64,000 nucleotides of DNA from an uncultured Lachnospiraceae bacterium (GTDB lineage Bacteria; Bacillota; Clostridia; Lachnospirales; Lachnospiraceae), in NCBI GenBank assembly GCA_934294885.1, contig CAKRAK010000005.1, forward strand, positions 9,535 to 73,534. Direction: 5' to 3'. Under the pieces are notes generated by a model, which saw nothing but the letters and a program-made list of their open reading frames with translations, was not told the DNA's origin and did not search any database. Positions 11,697 to 54,467 of the stretch are shown piece by piece; positions within the stretch are counted from its first letter, which is position 1; each line of letters starts with the position of its first letter. A program made the position numbers and the translations under genes.

Positions 11697-11913
11697 TATA
11701 TAGATAATTTCGAAACGGATACTGTTTCATACTACCTTGATATAATATATCGCAGGCACGCTTGCGCTTCATCCGCACACAGCGGTACTAAACTTGGAAT
11801 ACGCAGGTGCGATTCCTCGTTAAGTACCGGTGTGCTACAAGAGCCTGCTTATATATTATATTAAGGTAGTATGAATTGTGAGTATAGAAAAGCGTTTCGA
11901 AAATATCTATATA
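11697..11913 (+). repeat. long-hairpin dispersed repeat, copy A (core 11745-11856)
   Basis: The 112-nt core is near-identical to 24398-24509 and 50148-50260. The flanks form further inverted repeats: catactaccttgatataat / attatattaaggtagtatg and tatatagataatttcgaaacg / cgtttcgaaaatatctatata. Confidence 0.9.
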
Positions 11914-24315: not shown

Positions 24316-24350
24316 AATAAATTCCTTTCTGTAATGCAAGTAATACCGGT

Positions 24351-24558
24351 AATCGCGAAACGCTTTTTCCTTTATAATTTGTGCAAATTTAATATGGATA
24401 TATCGCAGGCACGCTTGCGCTTCATCCGCACACAGCGGTACTAAACTCGGAATACACTAACGTTTTTCCTCGTTAAGTGCCGGTGTGCTACAAGAGCCTG
24501 CTTATATATCATATTAAATTTTGCACAATGATATAGTTTACTAAGCGTTTCGCAAATT
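24351..24558 (+). repeat. long-hairpin dispersed repeat, copy B (core 24398-24509)
   Basis: Same core as copies A and C. Arms ttgtgcaaatttaatatggatatat / atatatcatattaaattttgcacaa, and basal stem aatcgcgaaacgc / gcgtttcgcaaatt. Confidence 0.9.
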
Positions 24559-24762
24559 CTAAGCAGAATTATGTGATCTAAGTTAATTTTACAATTACCT
24601 GTATAACATAGTATATAAGTGGGGAAAAATCAAGGGATATGAAAAAACTCCGTTTTTGAAATAATAACTGGCATGGTTAAAATAATAAAAACTGGATGTT
24701 TTGACCATGCCAATGTTGGGTTATAATGCAGCGAAAAGAAGGAAAGAGAGGATTATGAAAAA

Positions 24763-34891: not shown

Positions 34892-34912
34892 GCTTTATGG
34901 TAAGTGAATAAA

Positions 34913-35035
34913 TCTTCAAGGCGGAGTGAAATTCTCCACCGGCGGTGTTGGTATAGAGTGCCTGAGCCCGCAAGCCGTAAGGCAGGAACCAGTGAGATTC
35001 TGGTGCCGACAGTATAGTCTGGATGAAAGAGGATG
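34913..35035 (+). promoter_or_regulatory. FMN riboswitch (RFN element) aptamer
   Basis: Conserved blocks GGCGGAGTGAAATTCTCCACCGGCGGT, AGCCCGCAAGCC and GTGAGATTCTGGTGCCGACAGTATAGTCTGGATGAAAGAGG match the RFN consensus. Upstream of ribD. Confidence 0.9.
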
Positions 35036-35081
35036 GAATAGGAATTTGTCATGGAGACATGTGCAGATAAACAGAGAGGAT

Positions 35082-35120
35082 AAAGCTTTGAAGTATGGAT
35101 ATATTTCAAAGCTTTTTTTA
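35082..35120 (+). terminator. riboswitch expression-platform terminator
   Basis: Stem aaagctttgaa / ttcaaagcttt, 12-nt loop, T run. Confidence 0.8.
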
Positions 35121-35372
35121 CGCGAAGCAACGAGCCAAGGTATGTGCTTGCACAATACTTTGGCGACTGCCGCGATAACTTGCGAAAACCGCGAAGCACG
35201 TTTCGCATAGTATAGGCGAAGCAACGAGCCAAGGTACGTGCTTGCACGATACTTTGGCGACTGCCGCGATAACTTGCGAAACCCACAAAGAGCGTTTCGC
35301 ATAGTATACGCGAAGCAACGAGCCAAGGTATGTGCTTGCACAATACTTTGGCGACTGCCGCGATAACTTGAG
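35121..35372 (+). repeat. tandem repeat, 2.7 copies of a 93-94-nt structured unit
   Basis: The GCGAAGCAACGAGCC unit starts at 35123, 35216 and 35310. Each unit contains the hairpins caaggtatgtgc-tt-gcacaatactttg and tgcgaaaac...gtttcgca. Confidence 0.95.
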
Positions 35373-35391
35373 AAAAGACAGGTGTATCAGA

Positions 35392-36561
35392 ATGAATGAT
35401 AAAAAGGATAATCGGGAAAAGTATATGTATCGTGCCATTGAACTGGCACAACTGGGACTTGGAAAAGTCAACCCCAATCCATTAGTTGGAGCCGTTATCG
35501 TAAAGGATGGCAGGATTATCGCAGAGGGATATCATGCCAGATATGGAGAGCTGCATGCAGAACGGAATGCATTTCAGAATTTAAAGCACAAAGAGGATGC
35601 AAAGGGAGCAGAATTATATGTAACATTAGAACCGTGTTGTCATTACGGAAAACAGCCTCCATGTACAGAGGCAATTATTGAACATGGGATTTCCACGGTG
35701 TATGTAGGTTCCAATGACCCTAATTCTTTGGTGGCGGGAAAAGGGATTCAGCAGCTAAGGGATGCAGGGATAAAGGTTGTTACCGAGTTTATGAAGGAAG
35801 AATGTGATGCGCTAAATCCGGTATTTTTCCATTACATTACAACCAAGACCCCCTATGTGGTCATGAAGTATGCCATGACACTGGATGGTAAAATTGCGAC
35901 TCATACCGGACATTCCCGCTGGGTATCCGGAGAAGCCTCCAGAGCAAGAGTGCATGAAACAAGAAATGCATTGTCTGGTATTATGGTTGGTATTGGAACG
36001 GTATTAAATGATAATCCGTTACTGACCTGTCGTATGGAAGGGGGAACGAATCCCACAAGGATTGTATGTGATACCAAATTAAGAATCCCGCTGTCCAGCC
36101 AAATCATAGATACGGCAGATGAGGTGCCAACCATTGTAGCAACAACTGCACCCCATCCCGAATATAAAAGATTCTGGAATGAAGAAAAGGCATTTCTGGA
36201 AAAAAATAATGTTACGGTTTTGGTGGTAAAAGAAAAAAATAACCGGATTGATTTACAGGATCTTATGATAGAGCTTGGAAAATTAAAGATAGACAGTATA
36301 TTAATCGAAGGCGGTTCGGCTTTGAATTATTCAGCACTACAGGCCGGTATCGTGAATCGGATAGAGGCGTATGTTGCACCTAAAATATTCGGAGGGGTGG
36401 GATTTTTCACTCCTGTGGGTGGTGAGGGTGTTGAACTTGCTACAGATGCGTTAAAAGTAAAATTCGTGTCGGCAAAACCCGTTGGAGAGGATATTCTTTT
36501 AACCTATGATGTAGAAAAGAAGATAGAAGAAATTTCAGAAGATAAGAAAGAGGAGGTATGA
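35392..36561 (+). CDS. ribD: bifunctional diaminohydroxyphosphoribosylaminopyrimidine deaminase / 5-amino-6-(5-phosphoribosylamino)uracil reductase
   Basis: Deaminase zinc motifs HAERNA and PCCHYGKQPPC, plus the reductase domain. The ATG at 35392 is the first start after the repeat array; the ATG at 35425 is an alternative. Confidence 0.9.
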   Translation: MNDKKDNREKYMYRAIELAQLGLGKVNPNPLVGAVIVKDGRIIAEGYHARYGELHAERNAFQNLKHKEDAKGAELYVTLEPCCHYGKQPPCTEAIIEHGISTVYVGSNDPNSLVAGKGIQQLRDAGIKVVTEFMKEECDALNPVFFHYITTKTPYVVMKYAMTLDGKIATHTGHSRWVSGEASRARVHETRNALSGIMVGIGTVLNDNPLLTCRMEGGTNPTRIVCDTKLRIPLSSQIIDTADEVPTIVATTAPHPEYKRFWNEEKAFLEKNNVTVLVVKEKNNRIDLQDLMIELGKLKIDSILIEGGSALNYSALQAGIVNRIEAYVAPKIFGGVGFFTPVGGEGVELATDALKVKFVSAKPVGEDILLTYDVEKKIEEISEDKKEEV

Positions 36562-49506: not shown

Positions 49507-49534
49507 TTGACAATTGCAATAAAGTTTATATAAT
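49507..49534 (+). promoter_or_regulatory. sigma-A promoter of marR (TTGACA-16-TATAAT)
   Basis: Perfect -35 at 49507-49512 and perfect -10 at 49529-49534. Confidence 0.7.
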
Positions 49535-49603: not shown

Positions 49604-50074
49604 ATGGGAGAACATCAGGAAATAATAGAGGAGTTCTATAATACCCTGCGACGGTTTCACAATAGTAAACCAAAGTTCAAGGGGGATGGCGATTTGGCAA
49701 ATGTTGAATTTTTTATGTTGATGGGATTGTCTGTATTAATAGATATGAAAAACGACGGTGAACAGAAAAAGGATGTTACCTTAGGGGATATCATGAGGAT
49801 GAGCGGTATGTCGGTTTCGGCAGCATCCAAAAAAATCAGTATATTGGAAAAAAAAGGATATATTCACCGGGAGACATCAAAAACAGACAGGCGGAGTATT
49901 TCTCTTAAGCTTACGGAAAAGGGTAAAGAAATATGTGAAGAGGAAAAAAAGAAAAAACGCGTATTTATAGAACGGCTGATTGCGGAAATGGGAGACGAGA
50001 ATATGAAACTGCTGTTAGAGTTATCCAATCGTGCATTTGATATCATGGAAAATATGGATTGTTCCGAGAAATGA
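49604..50074 (+). CDS. MarR-family transcriptional regulator
   Basis: Winged-helix pattern GDIMRMSGMSVSAASKKISILEKKGYIHRETSKTDRRSISLKLTEKG. Confidence 0.85.
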   Translation: MGEHQEIIEEFYNTLRRFHNSKPKFKGDGDLANVEFFMLMGLSVLIDMKNDGEQKKDVTLGDIMRMSGMSVSAASKKISILEKKGYIHRETSKTDRRSISLKLTEKGKEICEEEKKKKRVFIERLIAEMGDENMKLLLELSNRAFDIMENMDCSEK

Positions 50075-50098
50075 ATTTGACCACTGCGTTTAACAGGT

Positions 50099-50308
50099 AA
50101 TTGCAAAACCCATGCAACCTTCCTTTATTTGTGCAAAATTTAATATGATATATCGCAGGCACGCTTGCGCTTCATTCCGCACATAGCGGTACTAAACTTA
50201 GGATGCGCTTACGCTTTCCTTCGTTAAGTACCGATGTGCTACCAGAGCCTGCTTATATATCATATTAAATTTTGCACAATTAATGACAATCCAAAGGGTT
50301 TTGCAATT
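50099..50308 (+). repeat. long-hairpin dispersed repeat, copy C (core 50148-50260)
   Basis: Same core as copies A and B. Arms ttgtgcaaaatttaatatgatatat / atatatcatattaaattttgcacaa (perfect), and basal stem aattgcaaaaccc / gggttttgcaatt. Confidence 0.9.
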
Positions 50309-50341
50309 CCCTGACAGAGCTTAAATCGGAAAGGAGTAAAG

Positions 50342-52600
50342 ATGTTTAAGGTATTAAAGTATGCAAAGAAGTTATGGTATGTCGTAGTACTCATATTTCT
50401 GTTGCTGATTGTACAGGTATATGGAGAACTTACACTGCCGCAATTTACATCGGATATCGTGGATGTAGGAATTCAGAATCAGGGATTGGAGTATCCGATT
50501 CCGGAACGGATTTCCAAGGAAACCATGGATAATTTGAAACTGTTTATGGATGATGATGTATGGTCCTTTGTGGAAAGCTGTTATAAAGAAGGGGATGAAG
50601 AGTATCAGGTTGATATTGCCTCTATGGAAAAAGAACAGTATGAACAATTAAAGGATGACATGATTGTTCCTGAGTTAATGTTATATTTTATGACTTCTGA
50701 CAGTGAGGAGGCGAAGGCTTTCCAACAACAGATTAAAGCGGGCATGGCTTCCGGTATGATGACCAAAAATCAGGAGGAACAGGGAAATGAAATGCCTGCC
50801 GGAGAAGTGACTGGACAGAACATGGCAGAGCTGCCGCTTTTGGATATGATGAAACTGATTCCGAAGGAACAGCTTCAAGGTATGTTAGAGGAAGGTAAGA
50901 AGCAATTAGAACAATATCCGGAATATATGTCAGAATCCATGGGTGTTCGGTTTGTCAGTATGGAATACGAAAAGCTCGGTATTGATATGGATGATTACCA
51001 GATGGATTATCTGAAATCAATGGGAATTAAGATGTTGCAGCTTGCGGTGCTGATTATGCTTGTTAGTATGATGGTAGGATTCTTATCCTCAAGACTTGCC
51101 GCCAGTGTCGGCAGGGATGTAAGAAGTCAGGTGTTTAATAAAGTAATGAGCTTTTCCAATGCGGAAATGAATCAGTTTTCAACCTCGTCTCTGATTACGA
51201 GATGTACCAATGATGTACAGCAGATACAGATGCTGCTTACAATGCTATTCCGTATTGTTTTATTTGCACCACTTATGGGAATTGGCTCCATATTCAAGGT
51301 AATGGAAACGACAACTAAAATGGTATGGGTAATTGTTCTGGCAGTTGTTCTGATTATGATGCTGATCATGGTATTAATGCTTGTTGCGATGCCAAAATTC
51401 AAAATTATGCAAAAGCTTGTAGATGGTTTGAATCTGGTATCAAGAGAAATCCTTACAGGTCTTTCCGTTATTCGTGCATTCGGAAGAGAGAAGAACGAAG
51501 AAGAACGGTTTGATGATGCGAGCACCCGGTTGATGAAGACACAGCTGTTTACTTCAAGAACCATGGCGCTGATGATGCCAACTATGATGTTTATCATGAA
51601 TGGAGTAAGTGTTTTGATCATATGGTCCGGCGCACATAATATAGATAACGGAACCATTCAGGTAGGAGATATGATTGCCTTTATTACCTATGCAATGCAT
51701 ATTGTGATCAGCTTTCTGATGATATCTATGGTTTCCATTATGATGCCAAGAGCTGCGGTTGCTGCAGATCGTATTGAAGAAGTGTTACAGTGCAAAAATG
51801 AAATTGTGGATAAAGAGGAGCCGGTTGCTTTACCGGAAACCTTGAAGGGTGATGTTGCTTTTGACCATGTATCCTTCCGCTATCCAAATGCAAAGGAAGA
51901 TGCCTTAAAGGATATTTCCTTTGAAGCAAGGGCAGGACAAACAACCGCAATTATCGGAAGTACCGGTTGCGGAAAGTCTACGTTGGTTCATTTGATTCCG
52001 AGATTGCTGGATGTAACAAAGGGACGGATTACCATAGACGGAATTGATATCAAAGATATGAAAATGAAGGAGCTTAGAGAACAGATTGGATTTGTTCCTC
52101 AAAAAGGAATTTTGTTCTCCGGTACAATCGCTTCGAATATCCGATATGGTAATGTAAATGCAAGTGATGATCTGGTAAAGGATGCAGCCCGGATTGCTCA
52201 GGCAACGGAATTTATAGAAGAAAAGTCCGATAAGTATGATGCTTCGATTGCCCAGGGAGGAAATAATGTATCCGGCGGACAAAAACAACGTCTTGCCATT
52301 GCCAGAGCCATTGCGAAAAATCCTAAGATTTATGTGTTTGATGACAGTTTTTCGGCATTGGATTATAAAACAGATGTCGCCCTTAGAAGGGAGCTAAAGA
52401 ATCAGGTAGGAGATTCTACCGTGATTATTGTTGCACAGCGTATTAGTACAATTTTACATGCAGACCGGATTCTTGTATTGGATGACGGAGAAATCGTAGG
52501 CTGTGGCACCCATGAGGAATTGATGCGGAACAATGAAGTATACCGGCAGATTGCTCAGTCGCAGTTGTCAGCTAAGGATTTAGAGGAAATGGGGTGTTAA
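50342..52600 (+). CDS. ABC exporter permease/ATPase half-transporter (degenerate-site partner) with a large insertion between TM1 and TM2
   Basis: Walker A GSTGCGKST and signature VSGGQKQR. Walker B is IYVFDDSFSALD, with Asp in place of the catalytic Glu. A hydrophilic insert of about 170-190 aa follows TM1. Confidence 0.85.
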   Translation: MFKVLKYAKKLWYVVVLIFLLLIVQVYGELTLPQFTSDIVDVGIQNQGLEYPIPERISKETMDNLKLFMDDDVWSFVESCYKEGDEEYQVDIASMEKEQYEQLKDDMIVPELMLYFMTSDSEEAKAFQQQIKAGMASGMMTKNQEEQGNEMPAGEVTGQNMAELPLLDMMKLIPKEQLQGMLEEGKKQLEQYPEYMSESMGVRFVSMEYEKLGIDMDDYQMDYLKSMGIKMLQLAVLIMLVSMMVGFLSSRLAASVGRDVRSQVFNKVMSFSNAEMNQFSTSSLITRCTNDVQQIQMLLTMLFRIVLFAPLMGIGSIFKVMETTTKMVWVIVLAVVLIMMLIMVLMLVAMPKFKIMQKLVDGLNLVSREILTGLSVIRAFGREKNEEERFDDASTRLMKTQLFTSRTMALMMPTMMFIMNGVSVLIIWSGAHNIDNGTIQVGDMIAFITYAMHIVISFLMISMVSIMMPRAAVAADRIEEVLQCKNEIVDKEEPVALPETLKGDVAFDHVSFRYPNAKEDALKDISFEARAGQTTAIIGSTGCGKSTLVHLIPRLLDVTKGRITIDGIDIKDMKMKELREQIGFVPQKGILFSGTIASNIRYGNVNASDDLVKDAARIAQATEFIEEKSDKYDASIAQGGNNVSGGQKQRLAIARAIAKNPKIYVFDDSFSALDYKTDVALRRELKNQVGDSTVIIVAQRISTILHADRILVLDDGEIVGCGTHEELMRNNEVYRQIAQSQLSAKDLEEMGC

Positions 52601-52601
52601 T

Positions 52602-54467
52602 ATGTCAGACGAACAGATGAGAGTAACACCGCCGAAAAGAAGAAGAGGACCTGGACACGGTCCGGGAGGCGGCATGGTGGCAACCGAAAAACCAAAGGAT
52701 TTCGGAAAAACCATGAAAAAGTTAATCAATTATATATCCAAATACCATGTGATTTTAATAGTGGTAGCGATTTTTACCATTGGTTCAACGGTGTTCAATA
52801 TTGTAGGTCCTAAGGTGCTTGGTAAAGCGACTACAGAGATTTTCAAGGGCTTAATGAGCAAATTACAAGGTGGAGCCGGAATTGATTTTGAGAGAATCGG
52901 ACAGATTGTGCTGATTATGGTTGGTATTTACGGCTTGTCCATGCTGATGGGTTATGTTCAAGGCTTTTTGATGAGCAGTGTGGTACAAAAGATTGCCTAC
53001 CAGCTTCGAAAAGAAATTTCTCAAAAGATTAACAAGCTGCCTATGAACTATTACGATAAGCACAGCTTTGGAGATGTCTTATCCAAGATAACAAACGATG
53101 TTGATACATTAACGACAGGTCTGAATCAGTCTGTGACCCAGTTGATTTCATCGGTTGCCACCTTGATTGGTGTGTTGGTTATGATGTTAAGTATTTCTCC
53201 TATGATGACTTTGGTTGCGTTGTTACTGCTTCCTCTTTCCGCTGTGGGAATTATGGTTATTGTCAAAAATTCACAGAAATATTTCATCCGCCAGCAGAAT
53301 CTGTTGGGAGATGTAAACGGACAGATTGAAGAAAACTTCGGAGGTCATAATGTTGTAAAGTTATTTACAAGAGAGGAAATTGTCCGGTCTGAATTTGAGA
53401 AAACCAATGATAAGCTGTATCATTCCGCATGGAAGTCCCAATTTATATCGGGACTGGCACAACCGATCATGGTATTTGTGGGAAACCTCGGCTATGTAGG
53501 TGTTGTTATTCTTGGAGGATATTTAAGCATTAAGGGAACCATTGAGGTGGGTGATATTCAGTCATTTATCCAATATGTCAGACAGTTTACCCAGCCAATC
53601 CAGCAGGTGGCGCAGGTTTCCAACATGTTACAGTCTACTATGGCAGCGGCAGAGCGTGTGTTTAATTTCTTAGAGGAGGAGGAAGAGATAGTTAAGGCAG
53701 AAAATCATACCGACCGGGATATCAAAAATATTGAGGGAAATGTCGAGTTTGATCATGTATGCTTTGGCTATTATCCGGATAAGATTATTTTAAAGGATTT
53801 CTCTGCTAAGGTTCGAAGCGGACAGAAGATTGCAATCGTAGGACCTACGGGAGCAGGTAAAACAACTCTGGTGAAGCTGCTGATGCGTTTTTATGATTTA
53901 AATGGCGGTAATATCTATATTGATGGTGTGAATGTGAAGGACTTTGATAAGGATGAGGTCAGAAACTGCTTTGGAATGGTATTACAGGATACATGGCTGT
54001 TTAAGGGAACCATTATGGAAAATATCAGATATGGCCGGTTAGACGCTACCGATGAAGAAGTAATTGCGGCAGCAAAGGCAGCCCATGCCCATCATTTTAT
54101 ACAGACCCTGCCGGGTGGTTATGAGATGGAGTTAAATGAAGAGGCAAGCAATGTATCTCAGGGACAAAAACAGCTCCTTACCATTGCAAGAGCAATTCTT
54201 GCGGATCGTAAACTGCTGATTTTAGACGAGGCCACTTCTTCTGTAGATACCCGTACGGAGGTTCGTATCCAGAAAGCTATGGATAACCTGATGAGGGGCA
54301 GAACCAGCTTCGTAATTGCCCATCGTCTTTCTACAATCCGTGATGCGGATATGATTCTGGTTATGAAGGATGGCGATATTATTGAACAGGGTAATCATGA
54401 AGAACTGATGAATCAGAATGGATTCTATGCGGATTTGTATAATTCCCAGTTTGAAGAGACAGCATAA
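52602..54467 (+). CDS. ABC exporter permease/ATPase half-transporter (consensus-site partner)
   Basis: Walker A GPTGAGKTT and Walker B LLILDEATSSVD. The signature is degenerate (VSQGQKQL). Starts 2 nt after the upstream gene. Confidence 0.85.
   Translation: MSDEQMRVTPPKRRRGPGHGPGGGMVATEKPKDFGKTMKKLINYISKYHVILIVVAIFTIGSTVFNIVGPKVLGKATTEIFKGLMSKLQGGAGIDFERIGQIVLIMVGIYGLSMLMGYVQGFLMSSVVQKIAYQLRKEISQKINKLPMNYYDKHSFGDVLSKITNDVDTLTTGLNQSVTQLISSVATLIGVLVMMLSISPMMTLVALLLLPLSAVGIMVIVKNSQKYFIRQQNLLGDVNGQIEENFGGHNVVKLFTREEIVRSEFEKTNDKLYHSAWKSQFISGLAQPIMVFVGNLGYVGVVILGGYLSIKGTIEVGDIQSFIQYVRQFTQPIQQVAQVSNMLQSTMAAAERVFNFLEEEEEIVKAENHTDRDIKNIEGNVEFDHVCFGYYPDKIILKDFSAKVRSGQKIAIVGPTGAGKTTLVKLLMRFYDLNGGNIYIDGVNVKDFDKDEVRNCFGMVLQDTWLFKGTIMENIRYGRLDATDEEVIAAAKAAHAHHFIQTLPGGYEMELNEEASNVSQGQKQLLTIARAILADRKLLILDEATSSVDTRTEVRIQKAMDNLMRGRTSFVIAHRLSTIRDADMILVMKDGDIIEQGNHEELMNQNGFYADLYNSQFEETA

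Follow-up and report, generated by a model that had tools for sequence, protein, structure and literature searches.

The window analyzed here is a 64,000-nucleotide stretch of DNA from an uncultured Lachnospiraceae bacterium. On its plus strand, a gene encoding a marR-family regulator (49604-50074; Pfam MarR, 7.7e-09) is followed by a pair of ABC exporter genes. The first exporter has fused membrane and ATPase domains (50342-52600; ABC_membrane 1.8e-32, ABC_tran 4.8e-31), and the second also contains ABC_membrane and ABC_tran domains (52602-54467, plus strand). A predicted sigma-70-type promoter matching the consensus TTGACA-16-TATAAT at 12 of 12 positions lies upstream of marR (49507-49534, plus strand), and the GGAG core of the Shine-Dalgarno sequence of the first ABC gene lies at 50333-50336. 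Most of the gap between marR and this ABC gene is occupied by a repeat element, copy C, which spans 50094-50313 (220 bp), matches positions 2-218 of the 219 positions of the family profile, and is assigned to the plus strand by the orientation of its asymmetric core. The original prediction had correctly placed the element between the marR stop and the ABC start codon, with limits that were slightly too short: copy C begins 19 nt (not 25) downstream of the marR stop codon and stops 28 nt (not 33) short of the ATG, with the GGAG core 20 nt past its end.

Copy C is bounded by a left terminal inverted repeat, CAGGTAATTGCAAAACCC (50094-50111, plus strand), which is 94% complementary to the right one, GGGTTTTGCAATTCCCTG (50296-50313, plus strand). 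Both are homologous to the ends, TAGG(C/T)..TTGCGAAAC, of an insertion sequence (IS) of ~1755 bp described below. Directly abutting the two ends are ACTGCGTTTAA (50083-50093) and ACAGAGCTTAA (50314-50324), which we read as the left and right copies of a decayed target-site duplication; they are identical at 8 of 11 positions, a match that is not significant on its own, and this degree of decay makes the insertion look old. Further inside, the left and right hairpin arms (50125-50153 and 50255-50283, plus strand; 29 nt, 97% complementary) enclose the asymmetric core (50154-50254, plus strand), the region of the element in which conservation across the genus is highest. As RNA, copy C is predicted to fold into a single long, imperfect hairpin with an energy of -97.5 kcal/mol and a z score of -12.9, a value equalled by none of 200 shuffled sequences. 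No open reading frame of 50 or more amino acids lies inside 50094-50313, consistent with the lack of coding capacity of a MITE. Searches against Rfam 15 gave no match for the element at the gathering score, nor at E <= 10 in 49950-50450; the single match in the window at the gathering score is an FMN riboswitch elsewhere. A plus-strand scan of 50075-50341 found no promoter-like or terminator-like sites, in agreement with the earlier reading of this gap. Promoters directed outward or inward from the arms and core were searched for as well, yielding weak matches and one minus-strand site at 50289-50262.

Copy C is a member of a MITE family, small non-coding transposons of ~217 bp, with about 50 copies in this genome. 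The repeat had been described from three copies; combined BLAST and profile searches of the genome (2.455 Mb in 44 contigs) identified ~51 full-length copies, together with fragments and short variants. A search of the same genome with the 121-nt core gave 40 scored matches, and a 28-nt word from the core occurs three times in the window, where none is expected. Alignment of the copies with their flanks gave common ends, on the left approximately TAGGC.TTTGCGAAACGC and on the right the complement of this sequence, which form 18-nt terminal inverted repeats that are conserved across copies, as in other MITEs. Copy lengths range from 209 to 228 bp, within the MITE size limit of about 300 bp. Direct repeats stand immediately outside the ends and differ from copy to copy, as expected for target-site duplications of a MITE. 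Against a control in which left and right flanks were taken from different copies, the flanking repeat exceeded the 99th percentile in 17 of 39 copies, with lengths of 8-16 bp, mostly 10-14 bp. Two other copies lie in the window. Copy A (11701-11909, plus strand), whose inner arms have been replaced as a block, has its right end 42 nt upstream of the ATG of an ABC ATPase gene. The left end of copy B (24346-24562, plus strand) lies 30 nt upstream of where a kinase gene on the minus strand begins. Close placement before a start codon had been attributed to copies A and C only; copy B likewise has a start codon ~30 nt away, on the opposite flank.

Across species, conservation is higher in the core than at the ends, an unusual pattern for a MITE. 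The core holds a conserved asymmetric loop, CGCT..CGCT, and its apical module, CGGTACTAAA...TTAAGTACCG, is found again at the tip of a second long-hairpin repeat. The conservation of the core and the shared apical module hint at a function beyond the MITE account. The second repeat family is ~170 bp long, has at least 20 copies (for example G000:C16:59188-59374 and L006:911-1068), and has in common with the MITE core an apical module of ~45 nt; its copies end in GAAAGC followed by a run of T and are often found at contig ends. Short elements of 60-125 bp with two terminal repeats and little or no core were also observed (G000:C1:218835-218932, C12:45088-45197, C13:17014-17121, C24:13099-13213 and C28:13127-13186). 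Core-less variants persist at the same kind of site as full-length copies. Since they still carry target duplications, the core is dispensable for mobility. Elsewhere in the window, three tandem 94-nt units (35119-35400) lie between the terminator of the FMN riboswitch (34908-35038) and the downstream gene, which by eye begins with the ATG at ~35393; each unit holds an inverted pair, TTGCGAAA(A)C...GTTTCGCA, resembling the MITE ends.

A scan of viral contigs from IMG/VR with a 17-nt end motif identified 49 contigs (L151-L199), many of which contain two inverted ends 1745-1770 bp apart around a single 485-aa open reading frame. The terminal repeats of the MITE are thus those that bound an autonomous IS of ~1755 bp. 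The two elements have only their terminal 16-19 bp in common, and their interiors are unrelated. Perfect duplications of 9-12 bp flank 11 of 16 IS copies. The 485-aa protein contains a DUF772 domain (2.4e-12), the only domain to pass the Pfam threshold, and among NCBIfam models it matches NF033551 (IS1182 family) best, at 64.4 bits against a cut-off of 270, a score below that for membership. The ISfinder definition of the IS1182 family gives a length of 1.3-1.95 kb, a single open reading frame and terminal inverted repeats. With 1745-1770 bp, one open reading frame and ends of 16-19 bp, the IS fits this description, and judged by its sequence the 485-aa protein is best described as a putative distant IS1182/IS5-like DDE transposase.

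Intact transposases are present in four other species of the same genus (G006, G013, G003 and G004, with identities of 80%, 69%, 68% and 49%), fragments or weak partial matches occur in eight further species, and the protein is very abundant in gut metagenomes, where its clusters have thousands of members. It was not found in the genome from which the window derives. That genome also contains no PF01609 (DDE_Tnp_1) or rve transposase, no IS-like repeats of 400 bp or more, and no pair of terminal repeats 1-3 kb apart enclosing an open reading frame. Mobilization in this genome would therefore have been historical or in trans. The PF01609 transposases of the genus were considered as alternative mobilizers and rejected, none of them having these ends. 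Full-length IS copies are present in many viral-class contigs, usually just upstream of a gene start, and phages or prophages may ferry the transposase between hosts.

The position of the insertions relative to the adjacent gene is regular. A GGAG or GAGG motif is found ~17-24 nt past one end in 25 of 39 MITE copies. For the left end, the motif occurs 17-24 nt beyond in 20 of 39 copies (P = 4e-18; random intergenic positions give a background of 4% per flank), and for the right end in 6 of 39. When flanks were read by eye, adding short or mis-started genes, about 26 left and 7 right ends were located 19-43 nt from a start codon. Copies with well-preserved duplications obey the rule in 16 of 17 cases, and MITE copies in other species keep the same spacing to the Shine-Dalgarno sequence. 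The IS behaves alike, with the motif 17-22 nt beyond one end in 15 of 16 copies; in 14 of these the end concerned is IRL, next to the start of the transposase gene, so that the transposase gene and the target gene diverge. A peak only four bases wide, present in young insertions and in both IS and MITE, points to target-site choice as a better explanation than later selection. The regular distance to the ATG is a rule of insertion of this family and not a feature of ABC transporters. The near-identical spacing of copies A and C to ABC start codons, to which attention had been drawn, is accordingly real as a regularity, and the link to ABC transporters falls away because the same rule holds next to unrelated genes.

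Orthologous marR-ABC loci were compared for the presence of the element. At L041 (ABC identity 78%), L048 and L043-L051, the end of marR and the ABC start are 0-45 nt apart, and the element is absent. At L042, from another Lachnospiraceae species (69% identity), an independent insertion, a mini-element of 67 bp that has the same ends and a duplication of its own, ATGAGATATA, is located 30 nt upstream of the ABC ATG (L042:2870-3000). Five long contigs from other metagenomes encode an identical MarR protein and keep the 267-nt spacer. Two pattern scans of metagenomes for an empty allele within the species returned nothing, and an exact-protein look-up returned filled alleles alone. The five filled strain contigs and the failure of these searches to recover an empty allele indicate that copy C was inserted long ago and is fixed in the species. 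An empty-site comparison had been put forward as a way to distinguish a regulatory element from a MITE insertion; with respect to occupancy of the locus, as distinct from any effect on expression, it came out on the side of the MITE. A reading of the element as a dedicated cis-regulatory RNA tied to ABC transporters is not supported, in view of these empty loci, the terminal repeats, the duplications and the partner IS.

Copy C very probably lies inside the marR-ABC transcript, since promoter-like sites are limited to the one upstream of marR and no terminator separates the genes. Nine copies, copy C among them, are located in short gaps between co-directional genes, an arrangement that favors read-through. 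In L006, a copy is preceded by a lysine riboswitch (104 bits) with its terminator and followed by the regulated gene's ribosome-binding site, a placement that makes sense only if transcription passes through the copy. The earlier assignment of copy C to a marR-ABC mRNA is thus supported. The L006 copy (L006:1180-1710; G000:C7) also has a near-perfect target duplication, with an exact 12-nt core of ATGATTTACTAT in the orientation of the copy as aligned. If transcribed, copy C would form a hairpin of ~100 base pairs ~20 nt upstream of the Shine-Dalgarno sequence, which could be cut by RNase III or block exonucleases, in analogy to Correia elements and REP sequences.

Comparison of strains revealed that the arms of the element recombine. 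The 151-nt block at 50129-50279 is present as its exact reverse complement in five long strain contigs (L212-L216), the flanks of which are ~1.3% diverged from the window, and the inverted block is bounded by 25-nt perfect inverted repeats. With two short contigs added, seven contigs are inverted, and three contigs and the window are direct. Either strand of the asymmetric core can consequently sit in the mRNA. A second event affected copy B: in L224 (896-1201, compared with window 24316-24762), the central 143 bp of the palindrome are lost and the ends are kept, which indicates how short end-only variants arise. As in invertons, a short segment bounded by inverted repeats and situated upstream of a gene, here immediately before the ribosome-binding site, occurs in both orientations within the species, and the core might on this basis be an invertible DNA switch that turns a promoter or other signal ON or OFF for the adjacent gene. 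We consider this very unlikely. Orientation is perfectly linked to the single-nucleotide polymorphism A50108C in all 11 sequences, which fits one past inversion between the 25-nt arms and not rapid switching; unlike in invertons, the two orientations behave as linked haplotypes. Other copies were not seen flipped: the 46 aligned full-length copies match the profile over its whole length on one strand, with none found inverted by inspection, and copy B is direct in all six strain contigs that keep its core. Searches yielded no convincing promoter in the core and no invertase or other recombinase linked to the element. The hairpin shape, intergenic position and high copy number also recall other classes of palindromic repeat, namely REP/BIME with RAYT, IS200/IS605-type palindromic elements, or a described Rfam RNA. 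Such an assignment is extremely improbable and was rejected on the basis of the direct 9-14-bp duplications and of the partner IS, a DDE-type element with which the family has its 18-bp terminal repeats in common; the lack of an Rfam match extends to E <= 10.

Complementarity between the arms is strongly maintained. The substitutions originally reported in copy C relative to copies A and B, C to T at 50184 and G to A at 50234, were confirmed at the base level; they convert a C-G pair (C11780/G11830 in copy A) into T-A. Across the alignment this pair (columns 98/171) is C-G in 39 copies, T-A in seven and broken in none, so that the paired change is reproduced outside copy C and single, uncompensated changes at this position are absent. 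Five of the seven T-A copies, including copy C, share an extra T and other markers; the remaining two have G-C for A-T at the neighboring pair. The shared markers define a subfamily from which copy C inherited its T-A pair. The description of a clean compensatory change therefore holds for the change itself and fails for its origin, which was not in copy C. Over the 46 copies, 42 of 63 pairs are changed on both sides, compared with 20.2 +/- 2.3 after shuffling (0 of 500 shuffles as high); cells changed on both sides number 172, compared with 57 in the shuffles; and 91.8% of cells are paired, compared with 28-49% when partners are slid. The basal stem, gcaaaaccc/gggttttgc in copy C, co-varies among copies A, B and C. 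The claim that helix integrity is kept is thus well supported by the family as a whole, and other species add further, deeper compensated changes.

What maintains the complementarity is a separate question. The extent of the covariation, its depth across species, the very likely transcription of the element in operons and 5' leaders and its fixation in all strains examined are what a selected cis-acting RNA of the marR-ABC operon would predict, whether as a stabilizer, an RNase III site or a regulator-binding site, and such a role could also have been acquired by exaptation. We judge this explanation improbable, because ~50 copies stand next to unrelated genes, orthologous operons do without the element, core-less short variants persist at the same kind of site, and strains of the species differ in the orientation of the core. 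The pair tables contain ~20 G.U and ~30 A.C cells on the aligned strand, a tally without strand bias that is uninformative on which strand folds and lends no support to selection on an RNA. The block replacement of both arms in copy A suggests a DNA-level event rather than stepwise compensation. Together with the unbiased wobble cells and the documented recombination between arms (the 50129-50279 inversion and the central deletion in L224), it makes selection on RNA no more likely than a process at the DNA level or descent from palindromic masters. Complementarity could in that case be kept by extrusion of a hairpin or cruciform and subsequent mismatch correction or template switching between the arms, by a requirement of the transposase for matched subterminal sequences, or by spread from a few palindromic master copies, with the RNA hairpin as a by-product. 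Inheritance of compensated states by a subfamily, as for the T-A pair, favors this explanation, to which we assign a probability a little short of even; what speaks against it is that core pairs far from the terminal repeats, such as columns 111/160 and 116/155, co-vary in several lineages, each with several pair types.

Taken together, we interpret copy C with considerable confidence as a fossil non-autonomous transposon, a MITE that carries the ends of its parent IS, was inserted upstream of a Shine-Dalgarno sequence and is probably read through as a hairpin. In the proposed pathway, the 485-aa DUF772 transposase of the ~1755-bp IS would recognize the two 18-bp terminal inverted repeats flanking the long imperfect palindrome with its conserved asymmetric core, and would mobilize the element. 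Staggered cuts by the transposase would generate the 9-14-bp target duplications. Insertion would take place ~8 bp upstream of a purine-rich Shine-Dalgarno region, presumably through its recognition, so that the distance from one element end, usually the left (IRL), would be 17-24 nt to GGAG/GAGG and ~30 nt to the start codon. In an ancestor of the species, the element would thus have entered the short marR-ABC intercistronic gap, where it is now fixed and its duplication has decayed. Read-through from the marR promoter would then place the ~100-base-pair hairpin in the operon mRNA, as a possible RNase III substrate or exonuclease block. The family itself would spread from palindromic masters, with the arms kept matched by selection on the hairpin or by arm-to-arm correction at the DNA level.

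Several known systems resemble this family. Like the Correia elements, which are MITEs of Neisseria, its members are short and non-coding, have terminal inverted repeats at their ends and occur near genes in many copies. Correia elements are co-transcribed with neighboring genes, form long hairpins and are cut by RNase III. They have a TA duplication and a length of 100-155 bp, whereas the present family has 9-14-bp duplications, a length of ~217 bp, a fixed Shine-Dalgarno distance, no sequence relation to them and an autonomous partner identified here. The ERIC/IRU and RUP/BOX elements of enterobacteria and pneumococci likewise form imperfect palindromes in transcribed intergenic sequence, with lengths of 100-200 bp, and compensated stem changes have been reported for ERIC. 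Their hosts and sequences differ from those of this family, and these elements are not known to keep a fixed spacing to ribosome-binding sites. The partner IS shares with the IS1182 family an N-terminal DUF772 domain, a length of ~1.75 kb, a single open reading frame and its best NCBIfam match. Within that family, IS1272 targets hairpins and leaves no target duplication, and palindromes are the target of some other members (PMC4923244). The partner IS instead makes 9-12-bp duplications and inserts upstream of Shine-Dalgarno sequences in a preferred orientation, and its score lies far below the family cut-off (64 vs 270 bits). A literature search for insertion upstream of Shine-Dalgarno sequences, or for MITEs in Lachnospiraceae, found nothing.

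We regard the Shine-Dalgarno-upstream insertion rule of this IS/MITE family and the inversion polymorphism of the core as the most interesting of the results. More tentatively, and with less than even probability, the observations can be extended to a broader proposal for gut Lachnospiraceae. An IS and its MITEs would follow an oriented Shine-Dalgarno target rule, by which dozens of leaders, including those of riboswitch-controlled and operon-internal genes, gain a ~100-bp hairpin; the core, occasionally invertible and with its apical module also in the second repeat family, could then be a spreading RNA or DNA control module. For the locus itself, reading the marR-ABC spacer as the scar of a transposon and not as a dedicated riboregulator avoids a misannotation. 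Studies of target-site selection would profit from a DDE-type transposase whose insertions keep a constant distance to ribosome-binding sites. For the organism, the family would amount to a natural experiment, in which ~1-2% of the genes of a gut bacterium tolerate a 217-nt hairpin between their promoter or riboswitch and their start codon.
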